DNA of 64,000 nucleotides from an uncultured Planctomycetaceae bacterium (GCA_964652605.1 CAZZBH010000002.1:5956-69955), one strand, 5' to 3'; shown: positions 24,252-52,901, counted from the first letter of the stretch. The notes: generated from the sequence alone by a model not told the origin. Program-made: numbers and translations.

Positions 24252-24872
24252 TTGTACCCTGTGTATATGACGAAAACGACCAGAAAAAAGATCATCCGAC
24301 TGGCAAGGGCCGGCGGAGTAATCCGTGCAGCGGAGGTGGAAGCTGCCGGCATCCATCGCAAGCACCTGATCGAGCTGACGCAAGACGGCACGCTGGAGCG
24401 GGTAGGACGCGGCCTGTATCGCCTAGCTGGCAGCCCAGTCACCGAACACCAATCGCTGGTCGAGGCATCCAAAGCGGTCCCGCAGGGCGTCATCTGCCTG
24501 CTGTCGGCGCTTGCGTTTCACCGCATGACCACACAGCTACCGCACGAAGTCTGGATTGCCATCAGCCGTGAAGCGCGAAGGCCGACATTCCATTCGCTCC
24601 AACTTCGCGTGGTGCAGATGAGTGAGCGTGGACTGAACACCGACGTTGAGCACCACAAGCTAGCTGGCGTTGAAGTACGCGTGTTCAGCAAGGCAAAGAC
24701 CGTGGTGGATTGCTTCAAGTGGCGCAAGATCGTGGGCCAAGACGTGGCGATCGAGGCGCTGCGAGATTACCTCAGCCGCAGAAGCAGCAAGCCAACGGAA
24801 CTGATGCGGCTGGCGAGGATCTGCAGAGTTTCCAGCGTCATGAGACCTTACATGGAGGCGCTGGTTGGGTAA
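24252..24872 (+). CDS. AbiEi-family type IV toxin-antitoxin antitoxin / transcriptional regulator
   Basis: The N-terminal winged-HTH region (..RAAEVEAAGIHRKHLIELTQDGTLERVGRGLYRL..) and overall length fit the AbiEi_4/COG5340 pattern. It overlaps the downstream nucleotidyltransferase gene by 8 nt. Confidence 0.6.
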   Translation: MYPVYMTKTTRKKIIRLARAGGVIRAAEVEAAGIHRKHLIELTQDGTLERVGRGLYRLAGSPVTEHQSLVEASKAVPQGVICLLSALAFHRMTTQLPHEVWIAISREARRPTFHSLQLRVVQMSERGLNTDVEHHKLAGVEVRVFSKAKTVVDCFKWRKIVGQDVAIEALRDYLSRRSSKPTELMRLARICRVSSVMRPYMEALVG

Positions 24873-25782
24873 GAGCAAGCCGACCAACATTGCCGCGTCG
24901 GTCCGTGACCGGCTGCTGAATCTGGCTAAAGAGCGAGGCGAGGATTTCAACTTCGTTCTGGCCCGCTACGCCATAGAGCGCTTGATGTACCGCCTCAGCC
25001 GGTCAGGGCACCGCGACAGCTTTGTGCTCAAGGGAGCAACCCTGTTTCACGTGTGGGGTGTTGCCGCACACCGAGCCACCAAGGACGTCGATCTATTGGG
25101 GCGCGGTGACAACACGCCGACCGGATTGATTCAGGTCCTGCAGGATGTGATTGAAACGGACGTCGAGCCTGACGGCATTCAGTTCTTGGCGTCGTCGCTA
25201 AGGGCCCAAGCGATTGCTCCCGAAGCCGAATACAAAGGCGTGCGCCTGACGATGACCGCGAAGCTCGGAACCGCACGGATCGCCGTGCAGGTGGACGTGG
25301 GTTTTGGTGATGCAGCGACGCCGAAGCCCAAATTGACGGAGCTTCCAGTGCTGCTCGACCTTCCCGCGCCAAAGATCAGGACGTATGCCAAAGAGACGGT
25401 CGTGGCCGAGAAGTTCCAAGCAATGGTGCATCTCGGCCTTCTGAACTCGCGCATGAAGGACTACTTCGATCTATGGCTAATGGCGAACACCTTCGAGTTT
25501 GACGGGGAAACGCTGGCCACGGCCATCGCGGCAACATTCAAGCAAAGACGAACTCCGATGCCTGTCGAATTGCCGGACGGCCTTGGAGACGAGTTCGTGG
25601 GAGACGAGAGAAAGCTATCTCAATGGAATGGATTCGTGAGGCGTGTTGCACAGGTACACCAAGGCGTCTCCCTTGCCAACGCAGTTGCGGACCTGCGCCA
25701 GTTCTTGATGCCGGTGGCCGAAGCGATCGGATCTGGAGCGCCTTATCGCAAACGGTGGCGTCCGGGAACGGGTTGGAGCTAG
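24865..25782 (+). CDS. AbiEii/AbiGii-family nucleotidyltransferase toxin
   Basis: GATLFHVWGVAAHRATKDVDLLG matches the nucleotidyltransferase GS...D.D motif. The C-terminal region resembles AbiEii, and it is paired with AbiEi. Confidence 0.65.
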   Translation: MGKSKPTNIAASVRDRLLNLAKERGEDFNFVLARYAIERLMYRLSRSGHRDSFVLKGATLFHVWGVAAHRATKDVDLLGRGDNTPTGLIQVLQDVIETDVEPDGIQFLASSLRAQAIAPEAEYKGVRLTMTAKLGTARIAVQVDVGFGDAATPKPKLTELPVLLDLPAPKIRTYAKETVVAEKFQAMVHLGLLNSRMKDYFDLWLMANTFEFDGETLATAIAATFKQRRTPMPVELPDGLGDEFVGDERKLSQWNGFVRRVAQVHQGVSLANAVADLRQFLMPVAEAIGSGAPYRKRWRPGTGWS

Positions 25783-25864: not shown

Positions 25865-27082
25865 TCAGCAGCGGCCGTCACTTTGTGGTCGTACCCGATA
25901 GACGGCTGGTTCCATGAGTAGTTCCTTGCTTCCGAATGACGGATGCGGAATGGATAACAGCTTTGGTCGCTTGGTGAGAGCATCGAACACCAGATAAAGA
26001 TAGTAGTTGCCCGACTCCGCAGCCCGTCGGAACTCGTTTGCCGTCAGCAGGAACCCTCGTTCCATGTCGCCCGCGCTTGTGCTCTTTACTTCTATCTGGC
26101 GCTCGGATCCGTCAACGTCAAATGACTGGATGTCATACCCCGCTCTGTCGTCTTCCAACGCGATGTGCCGAATTTGGCTGGCGAGGTCGGATCGACCCGC
26201 CTTGAGCAGGCGATTACGCTCCCATTCCAGCACAATGTATTCTCCGCGGTCCCCGATTCGTTTCGACTGTCGAGCTAGCTCTTCATAGTTCGGCTTTCCG
26301 CGTCCTTCGCCCCCGCGAACCCCTGCCAGCGGGCCAGAGGGTAACACTGACAGTTCTTGAGTCCCGGAGACGGCCACGGTGAGATGTGGAAGCTCGTTAG
26401 AATGTGGCGCGCGCTCTGCGGCAACGCCGACAGGTCTTAGCGGACCTTGGTAAAGAAACTGCATGAACAGCACTGGTGGCACATCCACCGCTTCGGATAG
26501 GTCGTTGCGATAGCGCATCAGCGCGCGCTGCATCCGCGGACCGTCGCCGAGGTCGCCGGGTAGGTTCAGCTCACTGGTGAAGTGGCACAGATGTGCGTCC
26601 GAATAGATCGGTGCATAGCGCTCTGGATGGTAAATCGCGAGGAGCTTGCCCTTGAACATCGGAGAAAGATCGACCCGTTGGATGGCGACTTCGTCATCCC
26701 GATCTGCAGCCGCCAGCAAGTCGAGAATTGAAGGCTTGATCTCCTCGAACCCTGCAATGGGGTCGCCAATCCATCTCTTCTTGGCCCGATATGTCTTGCC
26801 TACCTCTCCCTTCTTCTTCCCGAAGTAGACTCCAAACTTCATCGCGGTGCTGCCACGCATGTCGCCCAACGTGAGCAACTCAAACTCGATTCGATAGCAG
26901 AATGTCTTCTTTCCCTTGCCGCTGACGTATTCGTCGATGGTGAGTTCTGCAATACGATCTGGTGGGAAGTCCGCCACGAATCGCGCCCGGAGTCGCTCCG
27001 TACGCTCGCAACCCTTCCACTCTTCCTTGGTCAGCCCGCCAAGCCAGCGTTGCAGGTCCTCCGTGAACTCGTTTCGATTCAT
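25865..27082 (-). CDS. Hypothetical protein with C-terminal DUF3883-like PD-(D/E)xK nuclease fold
   Basis: The C-terminus ..YDIQSFDVDGSERQIEVKSTSAGDMERGFLLTANEFRRAAESGNYYLYLVF.. has the D...EVK restriction-endonuclease-like motif and the YYLY tail typical of DUF3883. Confidence 0.45.
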   Translation of the reverse strand: MNRNEFTEDLQRWLGGLTKEEWKGCERTERLRARFVADFPPDRIAELTIDEYVSGKGKKTFCYRIEFELLTLGDMRGSTAMKFGVYFGKKKGEVGKTYRAKKRWIGDPIAGFEEIKPSILDLLAAADRDDEVAIQRVDLSPMFKGKLLAIYHPERYAPIYSDAHLCHFTSELNLPGDLGDGPRMQRALMRYRNDLSEAVDVPPVLFMQFLYQGPLRPVGVAAERAPHSNELPHLTVAVSGTQELSVLPSGPLAGVRGGEGRGKPNYEELARQSKRIGDRGEYIVLEWERNRLLKAGRSDLASQIRHIALEDDRAGYDIQSFDVDGSERQIEVKSTSAGDMERGFLLTANEFRRAAESGNYYLYLVFDALTKRPKLLSIPHPSFGSKELLMEPAVYRVRPQSDGRC

Positions 27083-28234: not shown

Positions 28235-31200
28235 TTGGATCTCGTGCCGAAGATATTCGACAACATTGAGGCAAAGCTGCTGCCGGCGTTGGTAGAGGGC
28301 GTCAAGGCCGCATATCGTGCTGACTTCTGCGTCGGCTTCTTCAACCTACGCGGATGGAAGAACCTCGCGGAGCATGTCCAGCGATTCGAGGGCGGCGACA
28401 AATGCTGTCGATTGCTTGTAGGCATGCAGCGTCTTCCGGAAGAAGACCTGCGCGACGCGTTGTCTCTCGCTGGTAGCGTAGATCAACTCGACAATGCCAC
28501 TGCCCATCGGCTCAAGATGCGTATGGCTCGCGGCTTTCGAGAGCAGTTGGCCATTGGTGCTCCAAGAGTCGAGGATGAGGCCGGTTTGCGTCAGCTTGCG
28601 GCACAACTTCGTTCCGGCGTGGTCGTAGCTAAACTGTTCCTCCGCTATTCGCTCCACGCGAAGCTCTACCTGTTGCATCGACACGACAACATTACGCCGC
28701 TGTTCGGCTATCTGGGGAGCAGCAATCTCACCCTTGCCGGGCTGGTTCATCAGGGCGAACTCAACGTGGATGTCGTCGATCAGGATGCGGCGAATAAGCT
28801 GGCCAAGTGGTTCGACGATCGGTGGTTCGACCACTACTGCGTTGACATATCGAAGGAACTAGCCGAAATCATCGAGCAAAGCTGGGTCAAGCCGGACCTA
28901 TCCCCATACCTCATCTACCTCAAGATTGCGTTTCATCTCTCCCAAGAAGCCCGCACCGGTCTCGCCGAATTCAAGATTCCAAAGGAGTTCAGCAACAAGC
29001 TATTCGAGTACCAGAAGGCAGCGGTCAAGATCGCTGCCCATCACCTCAATCGGCGCGGCGGGGTGCTCATTGGAGACGTGGTCGGGCTTGGTAAGACGCT
29101 GGTCGCAACAGCGATTGCCCGCATCTTTGAAGACGACTACTCCATGGAGTCGCTCATCCTCTGCCCCAAGAATCTGGTACGCATGTGGGAAGATCACCGC
29201 GAGCAGTATGGGCTCCGGGGCAAGGTCCTATCGATCAGCCGGGCAATGACGGAGCTACCAGATCTAAGGCGCTACAAGCTGGTGATCATCGACGAGAGCC
29301 ACAACCTCCGTAACCGCGAAGGCAAGCGCTATGGTGCCATTCGCGAGTACATTCACGCCAACGAAGCTCGTTGCGTTCTGTTGTCCGCAACGCCCTACAA
29401 CAAGTCGTTCATCGATCTGTCCTCGCAGCTACGCTTGTTCGTTGAGGAGGGCACAGACCTCGGTGTCCGGCCAGAGAAGCTCCTAAAGGACATTGGCGGC
29501 GAAACAGAATTCCTCAAGGCTCACCAATGCCCAGTCCACTCGTTGGAAGCCTTTGAGAAGAGCGGCTACACCGACGATTGGCGTGAGTTGATGCGGCTCT
29601 TCATGGTTCGGCGCACTCGCAGCTTCATTGAACAGCACTACGCGGAAACAGACGCCAACGGTCGGAAGTTCCTCACATTCGAGAACGGCGAAAAACAATA
29701 CTTCCCAAAGCGGGTGCCCAAGACCCGCAAGTTTGACTTGGACGATGCAGACCCGAATGATCAGTATGCCCGCTTGTTTACCGACTCGGTCGTGGATCGC
29801 ATCAACCACTTGCGGCTCCCAAGATACGGACTCGGCAACTACGTAGTGGCGAGGCCATCGACGCCGCCAACAACCGCTCAGGCGCGGGTACTCGCGGGCC
29901 TATCTCGGGCGGGCCAACGGCTGATGGGTTTCTGCCGAACAAACCTGTTCAAGCGGCTGGAAAGCAGTGGCGCAGCGTTTTTGCAGTCAGTGGATCGCCA
30001 CATCTTGCGCAACCTGATCGTCCTGCATGCGCTTGACCACAGCCTCGACATCCCAATTGGTACGCAGGACACGGAGATGCTGGACACCCGCTTCACGGAT
30101 GAGGATGCGGACGAGCAGGACCTTTTTGAGCGCGACGACGACACGGAGGTACCAGAAGCACCTGAGAACCCCGACCCGGCGGCACTGTCACTTGAATCGT
30201 TCCAGTCTTTGGCCGAGAGAGCCTATGCAAGGTACGCAGGGGAAAAGAGACGTCGCTTCAAATGGCTACCAAGTGCGCTCTTTCGCGCTGACCTACGTGA
30301 GCATCTTCTGGCGGATGCCAAATCGTTGCTCGTGCTTTTGAATGACGCTGGTGAGTGGGATCCGGGCCGCGACAACAAGCTGCAAGATCTCATTGACCTG
30401 CTTAGTCGCAAGCATCCGACCGAGAAGGTCTTGGTCTTCTCGCAGTTCGCGGACTCCGTGGACTACCTTGTGGAGCATCTTGGCGCCGCAGGCGTTAGCC
30501 GAATCGAAGGCGCCACCGGCCAGTCGTCTGACCCCACTGCATTAGCTTGGCGCTTCAGCCCCGTTAGCAATGAAAAGGTCGGCAGAATTAGCGCACAGGA
30601 CGAGCTGCGAGTGCTCGTGGCCACCGATGTCCTTAGTGAAGGCCAAAATCTGCAGGATGCTGCGATCGTCGTGAACTACGATCTGCCGTGGGCCATCATT
30701 CGCCTAATCCAGCGTGCGGGCCGCGTGGACCGTATTGGACAGCTAGCAGACAAGATCCTCTGCTACTCCTACCTGCCAGCCGATGGCATCGAGCGCATCA
30801 TTAGGCTCCGCGGGCGCGTACGCCAGCGTCTGCATGAGAACGCCGAGGTCGTCGGGTCCGACGAGGCTTTCTTCGAGGACGCGGATAGCCATACCCGGGT
30901 GCTCGACCTGTACAACGAGAAAGCCGGCATCCTCGACGAAGGTGAGGACGGGGATGTGGACCTCGCGTCCTACGCCTACCAGATTTGGCGCGACGCGACG
31001 AAAGACAACAGGGAGCTGGCCAAGCAGGTCGAGCAGTTGCAAGACGTCGTCAATGCGACCAAGCCCCACAAGTCGTCTCCCGATCGGCCCGAAGGCGTGC
31101 TTGTTTACGCTAAGACGAATCACGGGACTGACGCGCTCGCCTATGTCGACTTGGTCGGAAACGACGTCACCGAATCTCAACTTGAGATTTTGCAGCTTGC

Positions 31201-31624
31201 CGCATGTGAACCGGACACGCCGGCTATGCCGCGGCACTCCACGCACCATGCTCTTGTAGAGCAATCGGTGTCGGAGTTGGTGAAGAAAGAAACGCAGATC
31301 GGCGGTCAACTCGGAAGCTCCCGCGGCGCGCGATTTCGCGTGTATGAGCGCCTCAAGAACATTGCCGAGCATCAACGCGGAACGATGTTCCAGAACCCGG
31401 AGCTTGAAAAGACGATCGAAGAGATCTACCGCTTCCCGCTGCGCGAGCTGGCCAAGGATGCTTTGAACCGCCAGTTCAAGGCGGGCATCGACGACGACGA
31501 TCTGGTGAAGCTTGTGCTGGATCTGAGGTCAGAGGGACGGCTCTGCCAAGTTACCGAAGAGCAGCAGCGCCATGAAGCGCGCATCATCTGTTCCATGGGC
31601 CTTGCGAAGAAACAGGATGAATAG
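28235..31624 (+). CDS. Fusion of phospholipase-D-like (HKD) nuclease domain and SNF2-family helicase
   Basis: The N-terminal PLD motif is LHAKLYLL...GSSNLTLAGL. The SNF2/SF2 motifs are Walker A GDVVGLGKTLVAT, DExH VIIDESHNLRN, and helicase-C LVATDVLSEGQNLQDAAIVVNYDLPWAIIRLIQRAGRVDRIGQ. Confidence 0.8.
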   Translation: MDLVPKIFDNIEAKLLPALVEGVKAAYRADFCVGFFNLRGWKNLAEHVQRFEGGDKCCRLLVGMQRLPEEDLRDALSLAGSVDQLDNATAHRLKMRMARGFREQLAIGAPRVEDEAGLRQLAAQLRSGVVVAKLFLRYSLHAKLYLLHRHDNITPLFGYLGSSNLTLAGLVHQGELNVDVVDQDAANKLAKWFDDRWFDHYCVDISKELAEIIEQSWVKPDLSPYLIYLKIAFHLSQEARTGLAEFKIPKEFSNKLFEYQKAAVKIAAHHLNRRGGVLIGDVVGLGKTLVATAIARIFEDDYSMESLILCPKNLVRMWEDHREQYGLRGKVLSISRAMTELPDLRRYKLVIIDESHNLRNREGKRYGAIREYIHANEARCVLLSATPYNKSFIDLSSQLRLFVEEGTDLGVRPEKLLKDIGGETEFLKAHQCPVHSLEAFEKSGYTDDWRELMRLFMVRRTRSFIEQHYAETDANGRKFLTFENGEKQYFPKRVPKTRKFDLDDADPNDQYARLFTDSVVDRINHLRLPRYGLGNYVVARPSTPPTTAQARVLAGLSRAGQRLMGFCRTNLFKRLESSGAAFLQSVDRHILRNLIVLHALDHSLDIPIGTQDTEMLDTRFTDEDADEQDLFERDDDTEVPEAPENPDPAALSLESFQSLAERAYARYAGEKRRRFKWLPSALFRADLREHLLADAKSLLVLLNDAGEWDPGRDNKLQDLIDLLSRKHPTEKVLVFSQFADSVDYLVEHLGAAGVSRIEGATGQSSDPTALAWRFSPVSNEKVGRISAQDELRVLVATDVLSEGQNLQDAAIVVNYDLPWAIIRLIQRAGRVDRIGQLADKILCYSYLPADGIERIIRLRGRVRQRLHENAEVVGSDEAFFEDADSHTRVLDLYNEKAGILDEGEDGDVDLASYAYQIWRDATKDNRELAKQVEQLQDVVNATKPHKSSPDRPEGVLVYAKTNHGTDALAYVDLVGNDVTESQLEILQLAACEPDTPAMPRHSTHHALVEQSVSELVKKETQIGGQLGSSRGARFRVYERLKNIAEHQRGTMFQNPELEKTIEEIYRFPLRELAKDALNRQFKAGIDDDDLVKLVLDLRSEGRLCQVTEEQQRHEARIICSMGLAKKQDE

Positions 31625-31627
31625 CCG

Positions 31628-34600
31628 ATGCCGAACCTGAACAGCGTGCGCGCAGCGATTCGAGATTTCGATGTCAAGCGCGTACTAACGGGGGAGCTGG
31701 GCTGGGATCAGTGCCACCTGCCGGCACAGTCGGTGGAGATCGGCGAAGTATCATGGAAGCTCCACGCGGTCGCACAGAAGCGCGGCTTTGTCGTCTTCCA
31801 GTGCGAACCGAGTCCAGACGGCCTGATTCCCGAGTACGCCACGCGTAACAAGATCGAGCTCAAAGTTGCGAAGACCGCTTTCGAGCACATGATCGTCTAC
31901 GTGGACGCCGGCAAGACCGCTCAAGTCTGGCAGTGGGCGAAGAAGGAGTCCGGCAAGCCTATACAACGCCGCGAACTTGCCTACCACGCCGGCCACACCG
32001 GCGAGGCTCTAGCCCAGCGCCTTATCAGGCTTCGTTTCACGCTCGAAGAGGAAGGTGAGATCACCCAACCGGAAGTGGTGGCCCGCACCACCGAAGCGAT
32101 GCGTGCCGAGAAGGTTACCAAGCGCTTCTACGAGCGATTCACCAAAGAGCACTCCGCGTTCCTTGATTTCATCGAGGGCATCCGCGAACTCGGCGACCGC
32201 GAGTGGTACGCCTCGCTAATGCTCAACCGCATGATGTTCGTGTACTTCATCCAGAAGAAGGGGTTTCTTGATGGAGACCACGACTATCTGCGCAACCGTC
32301 TCAACAAGATGCGCGACCGAGCCGGCAGTGGCAAGTTCCACAACTTCTACCGCACGTTTCTGCTAACCCTATTCCATAGCGGCCTCGGGCAGCAGGAGGG
32401 CTACCGAACCCCTGAAGTAAAGCAGTTGCTCGGCAAGATTCCGTACCTAAACGGCGGCCTGTTTGACGTGCACCAGCTTGAGCGAGTCAACGCAAAGATT
32501 GACATTCCCGACGAGGCGTTCGAGCGCGTTTTTGACTTTTTCGACGAGTACGATTGGCACCTCGACACCCGCCCCGGTCGCGCTGACAACGAAATCAACC
32601 CCGACGTTTTGGGGTACATCTTCGAGAAGTACATCAACCAGAAGCAGATGGGAGCCTACTACACCAAGGAGGACATCACTGGCTACATCAGCCGCAACAC
32701 CATCATCTCGTCCCTATTCGACAAGGCCAACGCGAATTGCGCAACCGCTTTCAAGTCAGACGGCGGCGTATGGAAGCTGCTGAAGGAGAACCCGGATCGG
32801 TACATCTACCCCGCGGTGAAGCACGGCCTGACGTGGAACTATCGCACGAGCGAGGAACTCGACAAGCCGGTGCCGCTGCCAGCAGACATCGAAGCCGGCG
32901 TTGCGGAGGTGGGTAAGCGCGGCGAGTGGAACAAGACCGCCACTGATGGGGCGGGGTTGCCGACAGAAACATGGCGCGAGGTTATCGCCCGCCGCCAACG
33001 CTACGTGGAGATTTCGAACAAACTGAGGGCCGGTGATGTCAACAACATTGATGACCTGATCAAATTCAATCTTGACATCGAGCGCTTTGCGCTGGACGTG
33101 ATCGAACAATCGGAAGGCACTGACCTCGTCAAGGCCTTTTGGGAGGCACTTCAGGGGCGCGAAGGCAAAGACGGCAAGGTGGTCGAACTGGGCATCTCCG
33201 TGCTCGATCCCACCTGCGGATCCGGTGCATTTCTGTTTGCGGCCCTTGAGGTCTTGAAGCCCCTATACGACGCATGCCTGAACACGATGCGCGGATTCGT
33301 CGAGGACTTGGACCTTGATACCACCCGGGACAACACCAAGAAACTTAGCTGGGCGCGACAGGCGCTAGTGCAGATGGGAAGGCACCCCAGCGAGGACTAC
33401 TTCACATACAAGTCCATCGTCATCAGCAACCTGTTCGGCGTGGATATCATGGAGGAGGCAGTTGAGATCTGCAAACTGCGTCTCTTCCTCAAGTTGGTAG
33501 CTCAACTGGAAACACCAGAGCAGATTGAGCCGCTGCCGGACATCGATTTCAACATCCGTCCGGGCAACACACTGGTGGGCTTTGCCACGATGGACGAGGT
33601 GAAGCGCGTCATCGAAGGACAGAAGGGAAGAACCCCAAAGAAGCTGGACTTTGGCGGCGAGTACCGACAGATCGAAGAACGTGCGGAAGAAGTGGCGAGA
33701 GCGTACGGAATGTTCCGTCACATGCAGACAGAACAGCAGATGGACGGAGTCGCATTCGTTGAAGCCAAGGAAAAACTTCGAAAGCGACTTGACGCCCTAA
33801 AGGTGGACCTCGACGCGTTCCGTTCGTCTGACTACGGCATCCCCAAGGACAAACCAAAGTTGCTCCACGAGTGGCGAACAAGCCACCAGCCGTTGCACTG
33901 GCCGGCGGATTTCTATGCCATTGTTCGGCACGGTGGTTTCGATGTCATCATTGGCAATCCTCCGTACATAGAGCTAAAAGAAATTGCAAACTACGAGATT
34001 CGGGGATACGAGTGTATCCCCAGCGGGAATCTCTACGCCGTAATCATTGAGCGCTGCAGCAGGCTTTGCCACGCCGGATCCCGGCAAGGCTTCATTGTTC
34101 CAGTATCCTCCGTGTCGACTGACCGATACGAAACTTTGAGGCGCATGCTGGGCATGCAAGAGGATTGCTTCAGCTCCTATGACGACCGCCCTTCGAGGCT
34201 ATTTGATGGCTTAGAACACATTCGATTGACGATCCACCTCCTTGGCGGTCGTGGCGCCATACCTAACTCCACACGCTACAACAAGTGGTTCGCGCAGGAG
34301 CGCGCAATGTTGTTTGAGAGGCTGGAGTTCGTCGAAGCGGCTCCAACAATTGTCGATGGCAGTTGGCCAAAGCTAGGTTCGCGTGTGGAACATGCCATTC
34401 TTCAAAAGCTCTTGGGGCAAAAGGCAATCCTGCGTGAATTTTATGCGAGTCAGTCAGAGCATCGTATCTACTACTCAAGGAAGGTGGGCTACTTCTTGCA
34501 AGTCCTAGACTTCGAGCCAACAGTACTGGACGGTAGAGGCTCCCGGCGCGCGCCCTCAGAGTTCAAGACGATTGCCTTCAAAACCGCAGCTCAAGCAAGA

Positions 34601-34987
34601 CTGGCGCTATGCTGCCTGAATTCCAGTTTGTTCTATTGGTTCGTAACCGTGCTGTCCGACTGCCGCCATCTGAACAAGCGCGAGATCGATGCTTTCCCGA
34701 TCAATCTAGCCGAGCTTGAGGCAAGCACTGTAGAGAAGCATCTCGTGGGTCTTGGGCAAAGCCTAATGCGTGATCTTCAGCTCCACTCCGAGGACCGAAC
34801 CATGCGGTTTCGGCACGACACTCTTACGATTCAGTGCATCTACCCCAAGCATAGCAAGCCGTTTATTGACCGCATCGATGCTTTGCTAGCGAAGCACTAT
34901 AGGTTCGCGCCAGAGGAGCTGGACTTTATTGTCAATTACGACGCGAAATACCGCATGGGGCCGCATGACGGTGAAGTGGACCGCTAG
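31628..34987 (+). CDS. MmeI/Eco57I-family (type IIG / PglX-like) N6-adenine DNA methyltransferase with an N-terminal PD-ExK nuclease-like head domain
   Basis: Hallmarks are QKQMGAYYTKEDITGYI, the AdoMet/catalytic motif DVIIGNPPYIE (NPPY), a large size (1119 aa) and a C-terminal TRD-like region. The N-terminal ~110 aa carry PDG...IELK (PD-x13-ExK). It starts 4 nt after the helicase stop. Confidence 0.75.
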   Translation: MPNLNSVRAAIRDFDVKRVLTGELGWDQCHLPAQSVEIGEVSWKLHAVAQKRGFVVFQCEPSPDGLIPEYATRNKIELKVAKTAFEHMIVYVDAGKTAQVWQWAKKESGKPIQRRELAYHAGHTGEALAQRLIRLRFTLEEEGEITQPEVVARTTEAMRAEKVTKRFYERFTKEHSAFLDFIEGIRELGDREWYASLMLNRMMFVYFIQKKGFLDGDHDYLRNRLNKMRDRAGSGKFHNFYRTFLLTLFHSGLGQQEGYRTPEVKQLLGKIPYLNGGLFDVHQLERVNAKIDIPDEAFERVFDFFDEYDWHLDTRPGRADNEINPDVLGYIFEKYINQKQMGAYYTKEDITGYISRNTIISSLFDKANANCATAFKSDGGVWKLLKENPDRYIYPAVKHGLTWNYRTSEELDKPVPLPADIEAGVAEVGKRGEWNKTATDGAGLPTETWREVIARRQRYVEISNKLRAGDVNNIDDLIKFNLDIERFALDVIEQSEGTDLVKAFWEALQGREGKDGKVVELGISVLDPTCGSGAFLFAALEVLKPLYDACLNTMRGFVEDLDLDTTRDNTKKLSWARQALVQMGRHPSEDYFTYKSIVISNLFGVDIMEEAVEICKLRLFLKLVAQLETPEQIEPLPDIDFNIRPGNTLVGFATMDEVKRVIEGQKGRTPKKLDFGGEYRQIEERAEEVARAYGMFRHMQTEQQMDGVAFVEAKEKLRKRLDALKVDLDAFRSSDYGIPKDKPKLLHEWRTSHQPLHWPADFYAIVRHGGFDVIIGNPPYIELKEIANYEIRGYECIPSGNLYAVIIERCSRLCHAGSRQGFIVPVSSVSTDRYETLRRMLGMQEDCFSSYDDRPSRLFDGLEHIRLTIHLLGGRGAIPNSTRYNKWFAQERAMLFERLEFVEAAPTIVDGSWPKLGSRVEHAILQKLLGQKAILREFYASQSEHRIYYSRKVGYFLQVLDFEPTVLDGRGSRRAPSEFKTIAFKTAAQARLALCCLNSSLFYWFVTVLSDCRHLNKREIDAFPINLAELEASTVEKHLVGLGQSLMRDLQLHSEDRTMRFRHDTLTIQCIYPKHSKPFIDRIDALLAKHYRFAPEELDFIVNYDAKYRMGPHDGEVDR

Positions 34988-35203
34988 CGGGCATGCCTAC
35001 TCAAGAGGTAGCTACGTGCGCAGAAGCGACTGCCTACGATGCGGTGTTAGGCATGGACGTGCTGCAACGCTGGCGCTTGGAGTACGAGGGTCCGGACAGG
35101 CACCTTTACCTGAAACTGCTGCAGTGACAGCTGTGCGTGGGGGCTCAACGGGACGTCAAACTACGTGCGAGCCCAACGACAAAGGGTGCGAGAGGCATGA
35201 TCG

Positions 35204-36676
35204 ATGGACAGCGTCGAAACCGCACTCCTAGGTCACGCTTTTGACGAGTTGTTCGTCGAGCACCTCGGGTGGGATCGTGTGAAAGCTGCGGTCTCCCTCG
35301 AATGTCGTGGCACATCCTTCGTTCTGAGCGCCGTGGCGCACAAGCGAGGCTTTACCGTCTTTAGCTGCTTGACACACCGCACGGTCGTTGCAGATCGCCA
35401 CTTTCTACGCGACATTCAGCGGCAACTTCGTAAGACTTACCACGAGCACATCATTGTCTTCCACTGCGATGCGCCGCCCAAGCAGGTGTGGGCGTGGGCC
35501 TTTGCCGCTGACGACAAGCGCGCGGTGGAACACCGCGAACACCCATTCTTTTCGGATCAACCGCCTCCGTTGCTGCTCCAGCGACTCCACGGCTTGGCGT
35601 TCCGGCTTGAAGAAGAGGCGAGCATCACTCTCGTTGACGCGATAAGCCGCGTCCGGCAAGCCCTTGTACCGGAATCCGAGTTCAACCTATTCGCCAAATG
35701 GCCGGGATATGCGCGGAAAACGGAACGACTGGCACTCGCCTATCGCGATGGAGACGCGTCGGCACTGCCGAGAATCGTAGAGATGCACCTGATGTTGGCC
35801 AAGAAGTGGTCGTGGCTGGCAAGGGCATGGTTTGGGCTCGACAAAGATGATGCTGGCCAAATCGCCGTGCTCGGATTGATCGAAGCCGCCCGTCGGTTCG
35901 ATCCCACGCTGGGGTACCAGTTCTCAACCTATGCAGTGGTGTGGATTCGTCAGGCTTGCTCCCGCGAAGGCCTTGAGGCAAGCCAGTTCATCCAGATACC
36001 TAGCTACCTGCACTGGCCAAGTGCCAGAATTGAACGGGCGCAACGCCAGATTGAACGTCGGCATGGCCCCACCGCTGCCGCATGTGCAGTTGATCGGCTG
36101 CTCGCCAAGGAGGGCATTCAGTTCGATTACTGGCATCACGGCCAACTCGCGCGCGAGCTTCGCCTTGCCGTGAATTTGCCCAAACGTCAGTGGAAGGTCT
36201 TTCATTTGGAGGACACGGTCACCCCCGTGGACGCCCTCGAACTCAAGGAGTTACAAGCGGCTATTCACGAAGAACTCGGAAGGCTCCCAGCTCGTGATGC
36301 GGATGTACTCCGCAAGCGGTTCGGCCTCGATGGACCCGTGATGAGGCTACGGGAAATCGCGAAGCCGCTGGGTTTGACCCGCGAACGCATCCGGCAGATT
36401 CAACGGAACGCAATGGAGTTGCTGCGAGGGCGCCTTGCCGCGCGTGGCATCGTTCCTGAGGGCATTGACGTGGGTTACGACTCCTTCGACGAAGATGAGG
36501 AGTCCTTCCCGCCGGCATCCGAAATGCAGTTCTCAGGAGCACCTGATCATGCGTCTCCATCGCTAGACGCGGGCGGTGTCGCAGACGATTCTACACTTGA
36601 CGAGACGGGCACATTTGACTTGAGCAGTCTGCAACGAGAGATGGCCTTTGACGACACCGAAGCTGTCACTGAGTGA
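35204..36676 (+). CDS. Sigma-70-family sigma factor fused to an N-terminal domain homologous to the methyltransferase's nuclease-like head (catalytic residues substituted)
   Basis: Sigma region 2 is DAGQIAVLGLIEAARRFDPTLGYQFSTYAVVWIRQAC. Region 4.2 HTH is LPARDADVLRKRFGLDGPVMRLREIAKPLGLTRERIRQIQRNAMELLR. Residues ~20-105 align to the N-terminus of the 31628 product (LGWD, AVAxKRGFxVFxC, EHxIVxxDA..QVWxWA). Confidence 0.6.
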   Translation: MDSVETALLGHAFDELFVEHLGWDRVKAAVSLECRGTSFVLSAVAHKRGFTVFSCLTHRTVVADRHFLRDIQRQLRKTYHEHIIVFHCDAPPKQVWAWAFAADDKRAVEHREHPFFSDQPPPLLLQRLHGLAFRLEEEASITLVDAISRVRQALVPESEFNLFAKWPGYARKTERLALAYRDGDASALPRIVEMHLMLAKKWSWLARAWFGLDKDDAGQIAVLGLIEAARRFDPTLGYQFSTYAVVWIRQACSREGLEASQFIQIPSYLHWPSARIERAQRQIERRHGPTAAACAVDRLLAKEGIQFDYWHHGQLARELRLAVNLPKRQWKVFHLEDTVTPVDALELKELQAAIHEELGRLPARDADVLRKRFGLDGPVMRLREIAKPLGLTRERIRQIQRNAMELLRGRLAARGIVPEGIDVGYDSFDEDEESFPPASEMQFSGAPDHASPSLDAGGVADDSTLDETGTFDLSSLQREMAFDDTEAVTE

Positions 36677-37244
36677 AGTACGGCGGTCAATGCCGGACTA
36701 TCCGGCTCATCTTCCGGACCGACTTGGTCGCCGGGCTCCCAAAGTGCTGTGGGTGATGGGCGATGCTGGCCTGCTAGGTCAGGACCTGTTGGCGATCCTT
36801 TGCTCGGTGCGCTGCCCCGGAAACGAGATTCTCAAGCTGTTCGACGTTGCCCGCGGGCTGCGCGATGCCGGCGTAGGAGTCATAAGCGGCTTCCATACAC
36901 CCATGGAAAAGGAGTGCCTCGTAACGCTCCTGCGCGGCAAGCAGCCGATCGTAATGTGCCCTGCCCGAAGCGTGCACGGCATGAGGGTACGGCCGGAATG
37001 GCGGGCTGCACTTGACGGCGGCCGGCTAGCCATCGTTTCACCCTTTCCGGCAAGCGTGAGTCGGGCTACGAAAGCGTCGGCAGCAGCGCGCAACCGGCTT
37101 GTGGCGGCAATAGCAAGTGACGTGATGATTGCTCACGCCCAACCCGGGGGTCAAACTGCGAGACTTGCGGAGGAACTCACGAAGTCTGGTCGTCCGCCTT
37201 GGGGTTTGGACTCCGCAAACCTTCACCGGCTAGTCAAACCGTAG
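36648..37244 (+). CDS. DprA/Smf-like Rossmann (SLOG superfamily) protein
   Basis: ..VISGFHTPMEKECL...RLAIVSPFPA...ARNRLVAAIASDVMIAHAQPGGQTARLAEE.. parallels the DprA motif RNRIIAGLS..VVVEA..SGSLITAR. It overlaps the sigma gene's 3' end by 29 nt. Confidence 0.5.
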   Translation: MTTPKLSLSEVRRSMPDYPAHLPDRLGRRAPKVLWVMGDAGLLGQDLLAILCSVRCPGNEILKLFDVARGLRDAGVGVISGFHTPMEKECLVTLLRGKQPIVMCPARSVHGMRVRPEWRAALDGGRLAIVSPFPASVSRATKASAAARNRLVAAIASDVMIAHAQPGGQTARLAEELTKSGRPPWGLDSANLHRLVKP

Positions 37245-37335
37245 CGTGGCATCGCCACCCCTCACTCCTGAAACTACGACGACAGTCGCAATGGCGCCTT
37301 GTGCTTTGTAGGGTCTGGCCACCTAGGGGGACGAC

Positions 37336-39123
37336 ATGAAGTTGGGTGAACTCACACACCGCGACCTTGATGCTGAGGTCCAGCAGATTGCGGAGAAGCA
37401 CCAGCATAGGCTGAAGAGAGACGATGCCTTCGTCGTCTGGTTTCTGCGGGCATACGTTACCGACGATGAAGATCGCTCATTACGTGCACTGACAGGTGGA
37501 TCTGGCGACAAGAGCGTCGACGCCACGCTGATCGACCGTCGAGCCAAGGTCGTGTTTGTCGTGCAGGGAAAGTACCGTCACGAAGTAAACAGGGGCAACG
37601 AACGGCGGTCAGACGTACTTGCCTTTGCCCAATTGGCCCACTGGATCCAGCAGGCGTCCCGGCCGGAATTCGACCAGTTCGCGGAGGGTATGGACGCCCT
37701 GACCGCGGACGCACTACGCGAAGCGCGACAGGCGGTTCAGAAGGACAAACATCGCCTGATCCTCTACTACGCTACGCTGTCAAAAGTGTCGCCATCGGTG
37801 GCACGAGATGCTGTGGCTGAAGTAAGGCGAAGCACGCCCCGAGACTTCCCCAAGGCAGAGATTGAAGTCTTTGATGGCAACCGCGTGATGCACCTATTCC
37901 GCGACTGCATGGATGGCGTGGCGCCACCGATTCGGGAACTGGAACTGGAGATGGAGCACGGCCCCAAGGTACAGGTCGGCGCGCTCATGCATCGGCACGA
38001 CTCCGCAAAGCAGATCAACAGTTGGGCCTTCCCCATGCGCGGAGACAAGGTGGCCGAATTGTACGATGTTGCACGCGACCGGCTGTTTGCCCGGAACATC
38101 CGCGGCTATCTTGGTGAGAGGACACAAATCAACAAGGACATGTTGGATACGTTGAAGTCCCAGCCGGAGAACTTTTTCTACTTCAACAACGGCGTCACGA
38201 TTGTCTGCGACGGCGCCGAAGAACTTGGCTCGGGCTTATCGAGACGGCTTCGTGTGGCCAACCCGCAAGTGATCAACGGACAGCAAACTACGCGAACCCT
38301 GTGGCAGCACGCCAAGTTTGCAGTCGATGCAAGCGTCTTGGTCAAGGTAATGGCTGTGCCACGCGATCCAGAAGGAGACGGGGACTCGTTTGACGACCTC
38401 GTTTCCAACATCGTTGCCGGCACAAACTGGCAGAACGCAATCAAGCAGGCAGACCTGCGCGCCAATGACCGCAAGCAAGTGGCCCTTGAACGCGAGCTAC
38501 GGAAGCTCGGCTACCTCTACGTTCGAAAGCGCCAGTCCAAAGGCGAAGCCAAACGTGCCGTACGTGCAAAGCACTTGCGAGCAGTAACCAAGGAGGAGCT
38601 GGCCCAAGCCGTGGCTGGGTGCGAATTGGATCCTGTCGTTAGTCGATCCGGCAAAGACAACCTCTTTGCGGAGGACCTCTACGACAGTGTGTTCCCAAAC
38701 ACAGACCCGCACTTCTACCTGAACAGATACCACGTGATGCGACAGGTTGCCTATGTGGCGCGTGGTAATCCGCAACGATCGTACTTCAAATGGTTGATCC
38801 TCGGATTCGTGTGGGGCGAGTTTCGCCACTATTTGGGCAAAGCGTCCTCACGAGAAGCGTTTCGGCAGGCGTGGCAGCGCGGCGACAGCACAGTGCTGAC
38901 TCCACTGAACAGAGCCATTGACACGGCGTTTCGCGATGCATGGCGCTTCTTCCGCGTCTACCGCGGCAAGGGCGACGAGCAGCTAGACGCCTCGCAGTTC
39001 TTCCGCAACCACAAGGGACGCGACAAGCAGTTCGGCAAGTTCTGGCAGCGCCGGGGCAATAGAGAGCGGCAGCGCCTTGAATCCGCTCTACGGAACGCCG
39101 CCAACGCAGTCGACAAGATTTAG
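37336..39123 (+). CDS. AIPR-like (abortive infection phage resistance) protein with N-terminal nuclease-like motif
   Basis: The N-terminus TGGSGDKSVDATLIDRRAKVVFVVQGKY resembles the G.GD.GIDA...Q.KY signature of AIPR-family proteins. At 595 aa it is consistent with that family. Confidence 0.4.
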   Translation: MKLGELTHRDLDAEVQQIAEKHQHRLKRDDAFVVWFLRAYVTDDEDRSLRALTGGSGDKSVDATLIDRRAKVVFVVQGKYRHEVNRGNERRSDVLAFAQLAHWIQQASRPEFDQFAEGMDALTADALREARQAVQKDKHRLILYYATLSKVSPSVARDAVAEVRRSTPRDFPKAEIEVFDGNRVMHLFRDCMDGVAPPIRELELEMEHGPKVQVGALMHRHDSAKQINSWAFPMRGDKVAELYDVARDRLFARNIRGYLGERTQINKDMLDTLKSQPENFFYFNNGVTIVCDGAEELGSGLSRRLRVANPQVINGQQTTRTLWQHAKFAVDASVLVKVMAVPRDPEGDGDSFDDLVSNIVAGTNWQNAIKQADLRANDRKQVALERELRKLGYLYVRKRQSKGEAKRAVRAKHLRAVTKEELAQAVAGCELDPVVSRSGKDNLFAEDLYDSVFPNTDPHFYLNRYHVMRQVAYVARGNPQRSYFKWLILGFVWGEFRHYLGKASSREAFRQAWQRGDSTVLTPLNRAIDTAFRDAWRFFRVYRGKGDEQLDASQFFRNHKGRDKQFGKFWQRRGNRERQRLESALRNAANAVDKI

Positions 39124-39262: not shown

Positions 39263-40468
39263 TTACGCGAGGGTTGCCCAGCGCTGTTCGAGGATCACGC
39301 CGCGACGTTGTTCCAAAATCTTCAACGCTGCACGATTTGCATTGATAGATTCGGTAAAGTCCCGGTCGTCTGCTCGAACCGCAACGCTACGGAGTTCCTT
39401 GAGCAGTTGCTCTGCTTGGTTCAAACCTGCCTCATGGTGAGCGACGGTTGCGGCGAACGATTCCTTGCGTGTGTGCATCACCTGATCTCGCAAGCATGCA
39501 AGGTAGTGGCGAAACGAGTCCGGCTCGCCATAAGCGACTGTGCTAGGTTGCGCTTCGCCGAACAGCAAGGAACTGTACTGCTGGAGGTGAGTTGGCACTG
39601 CCATCTTGTGCAGAACACCAAGTTGCTTGGCTACATCTAGGGCTCGCACTTTGTACTCGGATAGGGCTTGCGGGCAGTAGTACCAAAGTGCGCGCTGCAG
39701 TTTCTGCTCCTCTTCCGGCTCGTAAAACTTCTCAGGTGAGAAGACACGAACGTTCTTCCAAGTGCCCGAAGCGACGGCATTGGCTCCTGCGGCTGCTGCG
39801 ATCAACATCTGTTGATTACAGTAGCCTACAACGACCTCGACACCTTTGAGCCGAAGGCCAGCAATGAAATCCAGTGCATTCCCAAGCCAGATCGGATCTT
39901 CAACGAAGTAGCCGCCGTTGGGATGCTGGAGCACGATGTAGACACCTTGCACATTCCAAGTGGGCACTCGTTCGAGTACTTCGTGTATCTGGTTGACATC
40001 AGCCACAGCCGGGCCGCCAAGCGCGATGGTCGCCATCCTTCGGCGCGCTGGCATCTGGGTTGCACACGCCGCTGCAATCTGCTCCTGTCGTTCTAGCCAC
40101 TCGTCGTTGACAGTCTCTGATAGCAGGCCGGGCAAGATTACGGCGGCAGTGCCGATCTCTAGGTTGACGGCGGCGATGCTGGCGACCGACCGGGTCAGAT
40201 CATTTCCGCCAAAAAACGTTCCGCTGTCATAGCTGGCCGGAAACGAATCGTGGCTCTTGAGTCGCTCATGGTTCGCGTGCGGAACATACCACTGCGGATC
40301 AAAGAGCAAACGGACGCCCTCCACCTGCGCGATTTTGCCTGCTTGGGACGCTAACCACTCGGGCTTGATGTCTCTGGGACTAAGAATGACGGTGCCACCA
40401 CCCCATTCGCTGCATAGCGAGATCGAGTGGTCCATCATCCCATGTCCGAACTGGAGGGCAAATTCCAT
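39263..40468 (-). CDS. Hypothetical protein (last gene of the kinase operon)
   Basis: A 401-aa ORF whose start is 10 nt from the kinase stop. No family recognised. Confidence 0.35.
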   Translation of the reverse strand: MEFALQFGHGMMDHSISLCSEWGGGTVILSPRDIKPEWLASQAGKIAQVEGVRLLFDPQWYVPHANHERLKSHDSFPASYDSGTFFGGNDLTRSVASIAAVNLEIGTAAVILPGLLSETVNDEWLERQEQIAAACATQMPARRRMATIALGGPAVADVNQIHEVLERVPTWNVQGVYIVLQHPNGGYFVEDPIWLGNALDFIAGLRLKGVEVVVGYCNQQMLIAAAAGANAVASGTWKNVRVFSPEKFYEPEEEQKLQRALWYYCPQALSEYKVRALDVAKQLGVLHKMAVPTHLQQYSSLLFGEAQPSTVAYGEPDSFRHYLACLRDQVMHTRKESFAATVAHHEAGLNQAEQLLKELRSVAVRADDRDFTESINANRAALKILEQRRGVILEQRWATLA

Positions 40469-40478
40469 TTTCTGTTCC

Positions 40479-41366
40479 TTAGAGCGTTCTTGCCCAATCC
40501 AGTGCTGACTGGGCGGACTCAGGTCGATGGTCTCGTCGAGGTTGGGCTAGCGTCCGGACAAATGCGTCAAACCTGCCGCCAACATCGTCCTTCAGCTGCA
40601 GACGCGGCAAGGGGCTGTTCTCCACGCGTTGGCAGACCTCGAAGGCATCCTTCGCCCCGACTCGGAAGTGGTTGGCCCCGGTAACTGCCTCGTAGAGGGT
40701 CGCACCAAGGGCAAACAAGTCGGCACGCGCGTCTAACTCCCGCTTCTTGTTCTGAAACTGTTCAGGAGGAGCGTAGCCCAGTGTCCCAACTCCGCCGACC
40801 TGACCGGAAGCTGTCAACGACTCAAGGTCAAGATGCCGTGCGATTCCGAAGTCAAGAAGCCAGAAGTTGCCCGTAGGATCGCAAACAATGTTGTCCGGCT
40901 TCACATCCCTATGGATTACACGCGCACTCTCAGCCGCGGCGAGTGCCTCTAGGACATGGGTGGCCAAGCGCTTGGCATCTGCTACGGATAGTGGCGAAGC
41001 ATTGATCACCGCGCGAAGCTGGTCGCCGGGGACGAATTCCTCAAGAAGCCAAACCAGAGAACCTACGACTGAGTCACGTATGTCGGCGTGATAGATGTGG
41101 GGAACGCGTGGGCATTTCACTGCCACAACCGCCTGAATTTCTCGTTGGATTCGTTCTAGATCGGCGTGAGGCTTGATGAGCTTCAGGACGGCTGGCCTGC
41201 CGTCATTGGTCTCGCATGCGAATACCCATTTTTGCCCGCCTTCTCCCAGCGGCCGCAGCGCGGCGAGTTCGGGAAACAACGCTTGAACCATCGGAATGGA
41301 CAGCTGCATTTGTGGGTCCGTCGGCACGCAGTGCTGGGAGCCTACGCGGCCAACCGCGAGGCCCAC
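40479..41366 (-). CDS. Hanks-type serine/threonine protein kinase
   Basis: Present are the Gly-loop LGEGGQKWVFAC, the VAIK-like AVLKLIK, the catalytic loop HRDVKPDNIV, DFGIA and GTLGYAPPE. Confidence 0.8.
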   Translation of the reverse strand: MGLAVGRVGSQHCVPTDPQMQLSIPMVQALFPELAALRPLGEGGQKWVFACETNDGRPAVLKLIKPHADLERIQREIQAVVAVKCPRVPHIYHADIRDSVVGSLVWLLEEFVPGDQLRAVINASPLSVADAKRLATHVLEALAAAESARVIHRDVKPDNIVCDPTGNFWLLDFGIARHLDLESLTASGQVGGVGTLGYAPPEQFQNKKRELDARADLFALGATLYEAVTGANHFRVGAKDAFEVCQRVENSPLPRLQLKDDVGGRFDAFVRTLAQPRRDHRPESAQSALDWARTL

Positions 41367-42064
41367 TCACTCAGAAGCCATGACCCGTATGATATCGGTT
41401 TGCCGCAAGATGCAAATGAGGACTTTAGAATCGGACGACGTTCATTGGCGACCCAGATCCCGACGTTCCATCGACGAGCCGACTCAATAAACGTTTCATT
41501 TCGGGGCCGATTGGGAAGCAGAACATACGACTCGTGAGCAAACCAGCGGTGCGCCGATGCCTGTTCCAGCACCCGTTTCGAAGCGCTCATTTTAGCTTCA
41601 AATGCCACGATCCGCGACACTGGGAACAAACCTGCAAGTGCAGCGAGTCGCCACCGCGAGTTGCTGAGTCGCGTATAGCCGGCAAGCTGAAGTTTCAAAA
41701 GGCTCGCTTCAGCCGTTGCCCCACAGTAGGCACGAACCGTCGACAGGCAGGACGGTCCTAAACTGAATAGTAGCTGCGCTACTCGAAAGTCCGCCTTACC
41801 AAGGCACACGCCGGCGTCGGTCGGTGTTGCCCGCTCAGCCTTGCGAGACACAATCACGGCGTCCGGGTACGTGCCGTCGAGCAACGGCTCCACAAATGCA
41901 ATTCGTTGGGCCGGTGAGTGCATAGACCGATCGAGTTGGTTGAGAAAAGAAATGAGCATCGACGCTTCGGCGCCCGAACGCTCTGAGCGCAACACGAGAT
42001 CCGGCACGACCTCGCCACGGCCGCCGCCATTCTGCACCACAATGAAGCCTCTTGACTTTTTCAT
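41342..42064 (-). CDS. Hypothetical protein with possible PD-(D/E)xK-like motif (first gene of the kinase operon)
   Basis: ..YPDAVIV... and ..RIVAFEAKMS.. resemble D...ExK. It overlaps the kinase start by 25 nt. Confidence 0.3.
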   Translation of the reverse strand: MKKSRGFIVVQNGGGRGEVVPDLVLRSERSGAEASMLISFLNQLDRSMHSPAQRIAFVEPLLDGTYPDAVIVSRKAERATPTDAGVCLGKADFRVAQLLFSLGPSCLSTVRAYCGATAEASLLKLQLAGYTRLSNSRWRLAALAGLFPVSRIVAFEAKMSASKRVLEQASAHRWFAHESYVLLPNRPRNETFIESARRWNVGIWVANERRPILKSSFASCGKPISYGSWLLSEWASRLAA

Positions 42065-52798: not shown

Positions 52799-52901
52799 TC
52801 GGGCTGGGCCCGCGACGTAATCTTGGCCGGGCGGGTGGGGAGTTCGAGCAAGAAGCCTATTCATAACCGCGGGTACATCTGGCCGTGACTATGGAGAGGC
52901 G

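Follow-up and report, generated by a model that had tools for sequence, protein, structure and literature searches.

The locus described here lies at positions 28235 to 39123 of a 64,000-nucleotide (nt) stretch of DNA from an uncultured Planctomycetaceae bacterium (GCA_964652605.1 CAZZBH010000002.1:5956-69955), which is referred to below as the window, and it comprises five co-directional genes on the plus strand, labeled g1 to g5. The first of these, g1 (28235 to 31624), encodes a PLD(HKD)-SNF2 nuclease-helicase of 1129 amino acids (aa), a predicted restriction effector, and is followed by g2 (31628 to 34987), whose 1119-aa product is a PglX/BrxX-like gamma-class N6-adenine DNA methyltransferase (MTase) that is predicted to serve as the self-marking and specificity subunit. 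g3 (35204 to 36676) encodes a 490-aa protein in which an N-terminal domain (NTD) is fused to a sigma factor, g4 (36648 to 37244) a small DprA/SLOG-like protein of 198 aa when read from a TTG start codon, and g5 (37336 to 39123) an AIPR/AbiU-like abortive-infection protein that falls outside the conserved module. A prediction made earlier from the sequence of this stretch (the original prediction) had proposed that these genes form a five-gene defense module of undescribed composition, and searches against Pfam, PADLOC, and NCBIfam recovered all five open reading frames (ORFs) at the coordinates, and with the domains, which it had claimed. The intergenic spacings, from g1 to g5, are 3 nt (formerly given as 4 nt), 216 nt, a 29-nt overlap between g3 and g4, and 91 nt (formerly 92 nt). 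The overlap itself was recovered, although it requires the TTG start of g4, for whose product no entry was present in the public protein collection, while initiation at the ATG at position 36690 would yield a 184-aa product and a 13-nt gap. Comparison with approximately 110 related loci showed that the locus falls into three layers, namely, a widespread core, a rare sigma factor add-on, and an unrelated AIPR neighbor.

The product of g1 harbors the Pfam domains PLDc_2 (residues 110 to 197) and SNF2-rel_dom/Helicase_C (residues 255 to 835), and its motifs are intact (HAKLYLLH at residue 141, GSSN at 161, GLGKT at 284, and DESH at 353). Its top PADLOC match was 'HKD+Snf2' C3a139 (4e-40), followed by DrmD (1.5e-33), and every NCBIfam match fell well below its cutoff. 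Within a broad-family sample of 80 metagenomic loci encoding a relative of the g2 MTase, a g1 homolog adjoined the MTase gene in 63 of the 65 loci that were informative in this respect.

The g2 product matched Pfam Eco57I at 5e-22 and, weakly, MmeI_Mtase, and its DPTCGSG motif (motif I, residue 527) precedes NPPY (residue 777), as is characteristic of gamma-class MTases of the Eco57I/MmeI type. The nearest solved structure was that of BREX PglX (8c45, E=6.6e-8), with 9ewz also close; a profile search was in agreement, and in the fold and profile ranking PglX/BrxX came first, ahead of TaqI, CamA, and DrdV. The predicted structure was of moderate overall quality (predicted local distance difference test score [pLDDT] of 72, rising to approximately 85 to 92 in the NTD portion). 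The family is very large, with thousands of full-length relatives at 50 to 57% identity distributed over many phyla, and it is represented in PADLOC by the model PDLC03628 ('REase_MTase_IIG'), which covers g2 over its full length with 1110 bits. That assignment, which ultimately derives from REBASE, would be consistent with g2 being a type IIG (MmeI-like) restriction-methylase complete in itself, the NTD serving as its nuclease, with g1 representing a merely co-localized SauUSI-like type IV enzyme; the NTD does indeed sit where MmeI carries its nuclease domain and includes an a-b-b-b-a-b segment, and weak HSDR_N similarity has been reported for the cyanobacterial relative Slr6050 (Hagemann et al., PMC6105098). 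Because the NTD of g2 showed no PD-(D/E)XK or other nuclease signature, and because a separate PLD-SNF2 nuclease-helicase accompanies the MTase in the 63 of 65 loci mentioned above, the type IIG label of PDLC03628 is probably a misclassification of the whole MTase family, and we regard the self-contained enzyme as quite unlikely.

The 198-aa g4 product matched Pfam DNA_processg_A at 3.7e-11 (43 bits, the cutoff being 29.6) and the PADLOC model of PsyrA at 1.3e-22, the latter only across positions 97 to 269 of the 398-position model. It comprises the Rossmann-like DNA_processg_A domain only, with an E value of 0.3 to Helicobacter pylori DprA, and the full SAM, Rossmann, and winged-helix architecture of DprA/Smf is absent (TIGR00732, 36 bits, the cutoff being 191). 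A DprA-like gene was present in 25 of 44 informative broad-family loci (approximately 57%), in which it was always co-directional, and in 10 of these 25 it was located 0 to 76 nt from the MTase stop codon or overlapped it by 4 bp. It was the sole recurrent small partner in the related loci, and no recurrent DUF499-like or other large ATPase was found across the 29 sigma-fusion loci described below and the 83 broad-family loci screened for ATPases and small partners. When the MTase and DprA-like genes are not adjacent, the slot between them is filled by unrelated cassettes, encoding AlbA_2/HATPase_c_4, GmrSD-HNH, OLD-family, AAA_13, PLD nuclease, DUF4209/DUF7380, or Mrr_N proteins, and it is this same slot that the planctomycete sigma fusion occupies. 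Hma (PMC11232893) and BREX-related systems (PMC12839542) behave in the same manner, insertion hotspots within the operon having been reported for both. The combination of g1, g2, and g4 is a widespread, multi-phylum gene set, whose cultured examples carry the PGAP names 'helicase-related protein' and 'DNA methyltransferase' and for which the PADLOC verdict at the present locus would be merely 'type IIG RM'.

Two further observations were made on these loci. In two unrelated loci, a toxin-antitoxin cassette fills precisely the space separating the PLD-SNF2 gene from the MTase gene, namely, in L033 (MazE and PIN, 7364 to 7982) and in L114, from the Synechocystis plasmid pSYSX (a VapC-type pair, 8347 to 8980). 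In addition, an unannotated domain with the signature RLxWHDxxWxGxxC (cluster C5) recurs near these systems (L007, 1738 to 2928; L009, 15773 to 16843; L008, 12930 to 16805; L014, L039, and L108), being fused in L008 to an AAA_30/UvrD_C helicase (1291 aa) and forming part of proteins of 1244 to 1274 aa in L039 and L108.

A feature overlooked by the original prediction is that the first 160 residues of g3 are paralogous to those of g2 (33% identity, E=6e-18). In g2, this NTD (31628 to 32137, residues ~1 to 160) has an alpha/beta fold of aa-bbb-aa-bbb-a topology, and it matched no Pfam family even at E values of up to 10. When a profile of the NTD, to which the g2 N terminus conforms, was compared with 1.84 billion representative proteins, 1,140 clusters were recovered, and among the matches that were checked only two architectures were observed, namely, NTD-MTase (~1,100 aa) and NTD-sigma (400 to 600 aa), together with a few longer sigma forms. 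The NTD sequences form two groups, with a median identity of 48% within the sigma type, 46% within the MTase type, and 31% between the two. Recent swapping of the NTD between a sigma factor and its cognate MTase was considered and ruled out, as cognate pairs (21 to 36% identity) are no closer than noncognate pairs. This finding, together with the division into two groups, indicates that a single old duplication lies behind the two NTD types. At 15 positions, both groups show conservation of at least 90% (L16, F17, L21, G22, W23, K47, G49, E81, H82, Q94, W96, W98, R111, E138, and F163 in g3 numbering), which argues for a putative binding function that is common to both.

With regard to the longer forms, the NTD-sigma frame in L010 (9977 to 14884), L019 (9980 to 13514), and L021 (9980 onwards) appears to run into, or to abut, a GHKL-like region of approximately 650 aa (ExxxNxxDA), behind which lie two conserved genes, C7 and C8, to which no function is assigned; this layout recalls that of MzaA (sigma) and MzaB (GHKL). 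NTD proteins of 756 and 1129 aa were also present in the representative library (P0251 and P0267).

Beyond its NTD paralog (residues 1 to 160), g3 is composed of sigma regions 1.2 to 4.2 of the primary type (residues 170 to 415) and a disordered, acidic tail (residues 420 to 490). It matched Sigma70 r2 and r4 and retains the determinants of regions 2.3/2.4 and 4.2, as expected of a group 1/2-like sigma-70 factor. Approximately 100 full-length homologs of the fusion were identified, and nearly all of the loci bearing a taxon name were from metagenome-assembled genomes of Planctomycetota. A set of 29 nonredundant loci, the window included, was assembled, in which a locus was considered fully informative if the core was found or if at least 7 kb was available on each side. 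The PLD-SNF2 gene and/or the MTase gene was present in 18 of the 19 fully informative loci, so that the proposed co-occurrence of g1 to g4 was borne out by the gene neighborhoods, and a DprA-like gene was present in 16 of the 29, while the remaining neighbor genes of the window occurred in none of them. The gene order varied, with g1-g2-sigma-DprA, g1-sigma-g2, and divergent layouts being represented. The sigma gene is positioned between g1 and g2 in L002, L018, L022, and L027; in L002 it begins 7 nt past g1 and shares 11 nt with the start of the MTase gene, and the sigma fusion is therefore an integral member of the operon. Only one or two of the 80 broad-family loci carried the fusion, and the sigma factor is a lineage-restricted accessory, found mainly in Planctomycetota, rather than a defining component of the system. 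Carriage of the sigma fusion by phages or plasmids was looked for and none was found, and scans of the locus for consensus promoters and terminators gave results at chance level.

A 235-aa protein, C4, was encoded alongside the sigma fusion and the DprA-like gene in 11 of the 29 sigma-fusion loci (among them L006, L007, L008, L009, L023, L024, and L025), although not in the window. It has no Pfam match and is characterized by the N-terminal sequence 'RTRQILEDLEAVRENLLALSDDIW', and in L004 (8488 to 9846) it is fused to the DprA-like gene. C4 could be a regulator, for example, an anti-sigma factor; its assignment to the family of the small, Mrr_N-containing protein M4 was rejected, as there was no detectable similarity.

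An experimental anchor for the core is provided by plasmid pSYSX of Synechocystis sp. PCC 6803, on which Slr6050 (47% identity to g2 over its full length, NTD present) adjoins a 'helicase-related protein' with 51% full-length identity to g1 and all motifs intact. This pair is a member of the family with the same gene order, lacking both the DprA-like gene and the sigma fusion and carrying a VapBC-type cassette between the two genes, and Slr6050 has so far been studied as a methyltransferase, not as part of a defense system. It has tentatively been identified as M.Ssp6803IV, with the asymmetric motif GA(m6A)GGC (where m6A is N6-methyladenine), and its deletion never segregated (Hagemann et al., PMC6105098). 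A knockout that fails to segregate fits a toxic cognate restriction partner, and by analogy with addiction to classical restriction-modification (R-M) systems, the essentiality of Slr6050 would reflect attack on unmodified DNA by the cognate PLD-SNF2 nuclease. Directly downstream of the pair (L114, 12784 to 15405; pSYSX 51619 to 54240) is a ThiF/E2/multiubiquitin cluster of the Bil-like, ubiquitin-type class, followed by a helix-turn-helix (HTH)/ImmA pair and then an integrase, such that this region forms a small defense island of its own.

The original prediction had noted a resemblance to DISARM class 1 but had set both this system and BREX aside, a judgment that was upheld for the locus and its flanks, as PADLOC and Pfam searches covering the five genes together with ten ORFs on their flanks revealed no DrmA/DrmB, PglZ/BrxC, or DUF499 homolog that had been missed. 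DISARM class 1 likewise brings together an SNF2 helicase (DrmD-like), a PLD nuclease (DrmC-like, and here fused to the helicase), and an Eco57I-type MTase (DrmMI-like), but it is defined by a DrmA/DrmB (DUF1998) core, of which the only trace here was a generic helicase-C match of g1 to DrmA (6e-11), DrmB giving no match; a DrmA/DrmB-type family was not recurrent in the related loci either. Scores against the DISARM equivalogs were low, with 125 bits for DISARM_DrmD (NCBIfam) on g1 against a cutoff of 610, and 2.5e-19 for the PADLOC DrmMI model on g2, compared to 1110 bits for the IIG model. With respect to BREX, g2 resembles PglX/BrxX in its size, helical N region, gamma-class MTase domain, and C-terminal recognition region, this being the sole BREX feature of the locus, from which BrxC, PglZ, BrxA, BrxB, and BrxL are all absent. 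The BREX_1_MTaseX model (NCBIfam) gave 58 bits on g2 against a cutoff of 500; the locus falls outside BREX types 1 to 6, and g2 differs from PglX in possessing an extra alpha/beta NTD before the helical region and in being partnered with a PLD-SNF2 nuclease-helicase.

The nearest described architecture is that of the type-2 BREX-related (BR) system built around DUF499 (Gao_RL, since renamed MANTIS), which is composed of MtsA (DUF499 AAA+), MtsB (DUF3780), MtsC (an N6-MTase), and MtsD (an N-terminal PLD domain with an SF2 motor), all four genes being required and the MtsD dimer building one PLD site (PMC12839542; bioRxiv 10.64898/2026.09.23.753747). The two systems share an N6-adenine MTase and an HKD/PLD-SF2 (Swi2/Snf2-like) effector, the N-terminal HKD helicase arrangement being that of g1, and also accessory defense genes within the operon, while the R-M-like logic and the asymmetric, one-strand m6A mark of MANTIS are matched by those proposed here. 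In contrast, MtsA (DUF499) and MtsB (DUF3780) are absent from both the window and the ~110 related loci, although a stand-alone DUF3780 protein is present in 98% of type-2 loci (PMC12839542); g2 differs from the MANTIS MTase in being of the Eco57I/PglX type with an NTD, and the DprA-like third gene and the planctomycete NTD-sigma protein are found only here. The locus could conceivably be a degenerate or minimal form of DISARM class 1 or of a BR type-2/MANTIS system that has lost components, given that g1 matched DrmD, HmaA, and 'phospholipD_antiphage', that g2 matched DrmMI and PglX, and that an SNF2 protein with an HKD at its N terminus is also the design of the BR type-2 helicase (PMC12839542). 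This would, however, be most improbable in view of equivalog scores that are all far below their cutoffs, of the absence of DrmA/DrmB, DUF499, and DUF3780 from the window with no such family recurring in the related loci, and of a family that is far too large and uniform to consist of decay products.

The small DprA-like protein beside a helicase-containing, potentially toxic partner is reminiscent of PsyrTA (RqlHI) and ShosTA, but both the RecQ-like PsyrT, which in PsyrTA adjoins PsyrA, and the phosphoribosyltransferase ShosT are absent here, and g4 is a bare DprA-like domain of some 200 aa to which an antitoxin role may be ascribed by analogy only. The conserved unit formed by g1 to g4 is accommodated by none of these named systems, and the locus likewise falls outside Hma, whose defining partners it lacks. 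Its core, a part of the composition that the original prediction had taken for new, cannot itself be considered so, being an already catalogued and very common R-M-like pair; the family is huge and multi-phylum, is modeled by PADLOC as 'type IIG' (1110 bits), has a member named in REBASE (M.Ssp6803IV; PMC6105098), and resembles MtsD/MtsC (PMC12839542; bioRxiv 10.64898/2026.09.23.753747). What is new is the NTD common to a methylase and a sigma factor, the DprA-like protein as a general third component, and the lack of a DUF499/BrxC-type ATPase. No description of the PLD-SNF2/NTD-MTase/DprA-like trio or of the NTD-sigma fusion was found in the searchable literature, which for the most part excluded subscription journals and thus provides an absence of evidence only; within that scope, the sigma fusion is an undescribed architecture, as had been claimed.

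We favor, as the more probable interpretation, that g1 to g4 constitute a single R-M-like defense unit, ATP-dependent and BREX-related, within a defense island. This is supported by the linkage of g1, g2, and g4 with one another and with the sigma fusion, by intact catalytic motifs, by the PglX-like nature of the MTase, by the exclusive occurrence of the NTD in these MTases and sigma fusions among the matches checked and across all the loci, by the positions conserved in both NTD groups, by the region 2.3/2.4 and 4.2 determinants retained in the sigma moiety, by the pSYSX pair, and by the precedent of MANTIS. A number of points weigh against it. Restriction of phages by this exact family is a prediction drawn from sequence and analogy, as is the binding role proposed for the NTD. 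The specificity of Slr6050 was assigned by elimination only (PMC6105098), and its essentiality could have other causes. Among g2 homologs at 53 to 57% identity, no hypervariable target recognition domain segment was evident, and g2 may work in a manner unlike that of the MANTIS MTase, which needs a DUF499 loader and DUF3780. Approximately 43% of informative loci, pSYSX and Pelobacter pPRO1 among them, lack a homolog of g4, which is therefore dispensable or replaceable. No conserved promoter motif survived multiple testing when k-mer enrichment was assessed in the 250 nt upstream of g1, g2, g3, g4, and C4 homologs.

Finally, sigma fusions without g1 or g2 nearby occur in L029, L014, and L020, in some cases with and in others without a DprA-like gene. 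Such loci would suit an arrangement in which the sigma fusion and the DprA-like gene (with C4 elsewhere) form an autonomous toxin-antitoxin-like or regulatory module that inserts at an MTase-DprA hotspot, a slot which, as noted, accepts many unrelated cassettes (GmrSD, OLD, AAA_13, and PLD among them) and has parallels in Hma operons (PMC11232893); the match of g4 to the antitoxin PsyrA points in the same direction. Against this stand the confinement of the NTD, among the matches checked, to this MTase family and these sigma fusions, the presence of the DprA-like gene in the core even where the sigma factor is missing, and the location of the sigma gene between g1 and g2 in the four loci named above, with overlap of the MTase start codon in L002, as well as the fact that no toxin domain is evident. 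An autonomous module is therefore considered unlikely.

Under the proposed model of a single R-M-like unit, the g2 MTase would recognize a short, asymmetric site and methylate one adenine, thereby marking self DNA, and would also provide target specificity for g1. The latter is predicted to dimerize via its single HKD motif, giving one nuclease site as in the solved MtsD of MANTIS, and to employ ATP-driven translocation in order to cleave unmodified DNA. In analogy to PsyrA and ShosA, DprA-like antitoxins whose partners are helicase or other toxins, g4 may act as a regulator or sensor that binds single-stranded DNA or a nucleotide. The NTD of g3 would bind the same partner or ligand as that of the MTase, and in what is the least supported step of the scheme, g3 would thereby link RNA polymerase with the condition of the system. 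It might do so by controlling the expression of the operon or of an effector, or by tethering the complex to RNA polymerase that is initiating or transcribing. That the sigma fusion has such a specific role in transcription coupling is rated as less likely than not. In its fullest form, the proposal, which we likewise advance with some doubt, is that NTD-sigma represents a defense-dedicated sigma factor wired into a restriction complex by docking on the partner or DNA signal of the MTase, and that the core beneath it is an unnamed, very widespread, three-gene BREX-related system (PLD-SNF2, NTD-MTase, and a DprA-like protein) which operates without the DUF499/BrxC-type ATPase regarded as the centerpiece of BREX-like systems.

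The product of the remaining gene, g5, matched Pfam AIPR at 1e-38 and PADLOC AbiU at 6.5e-41. According to the original prediction it belongs to the module, and its position on the same strand, 91 nt downstream of g4, is compatible with a single new system of five genes whose AIPR effector is driven by the sigma factor. A precedent for such an arrangement exists in the validated mzaABCDE system, in which MzaA, a protein of the sigma-70 family that carries a long extension at its N terminus, is combined with an AIPR protein, MzaE, so that a sigma factor dedicated to defense is in itself no novelty, contrary to what had been suggested (PMC9523054). Weak matches of MzaA to g3 (2e-30) and MzaE to g5 (1e-17) were indeed obtained, and R-M operons frequently contain AIPR genes (PMC2292703). 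The scores, however, lie far below the cutoffs (106 bits against 800 for MzaA, covering the generic sigma part only, and 64 against 1050 for MzaE), the N-terminal extension of MzaA differs from that of g3, and MzaB, MzaC, and MzaD are absent here. Moreover, an AIPR gene was found in none of the 29 sigma-fusion loci and in none of the 80 broad-family loci, and other single-gene systems crowd the island. The co-occurrence claimed for the five genes consequently holds for g1 to g4 and not for g5, which, because it is never conserved with the others, is an independent neighbor in a defense island; the five-gene system is largely refuted by this non-conservation, and we deem it very unlikely.

The island in question contains an integrase (22677 to 24026), AbiEi/AbiEii, a PD-T4-1 homolog, and a PD-T4-6-like kinase, and a fall in GC content from approximately 0.62 to 0.57 over 24 to 44 kb is consistent with its being a defense island; no convincing att-site repeats bounding it were found. 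The AbiEi/AbiEii pair (24252 to 25782; E=2e-80 and 8e-113) is situated just downstream of the integrase and gyrB, and the PD-T4-1 homolog, which is near full length and possesses a NOV_C domain, is encoded on the minus strand (25865 to 27082; E=6e-72). Also on the minus strand, at 39263 to 42064, are three packed, co-directional ORFs, with a 10-nt gap at one junction and a 25-nt overlap at the other, which encode a 401-aa protein of unknown function, a 295-aa Ser/Thr kinase (PD-T4-6, E=4e-46), and a 240-aa protein, likewise of unknown function. The two ORFs flanking the kinase gave no Pfam, NCBIfam, or PADLOC match, and the trio may constitute a three-gene, kinase-based defense operon.

The interpretation presented here would mean that a very large family automatically labeled 'type IIG' at present (the NTD alone comprises >1,100 clusters at 50% identity, and the metagenomic loci recovered number >555) is in reality a split nuclease-helicase/methylase system, to which a DprA-like third gene is often added. 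As this system is related to BREX and MANTIS yet has no loader ATPase, it prompts one to ask how, without MtsA or BrxC, the MTase would be loaded and restriction licensed. The Synechocystis 6803 pair, consisting of slr6050 and its helicase neighbor, is genetically tractable, and its 'essential' methylase renders the restriction hypothesis testable. The occurrence of the same NTD on a methylase and on a primary-like sigma factor represents a natural experiment on a possible link between transcription and restriction, and if the proposed role of the sigma fusion is correct, RNA polymerase would be recruited to, or released from, an R-M-like machine when foreign DNA is engaged, which would amount to transcription-coupled target finding or to an infection-triggered transcriptional program.

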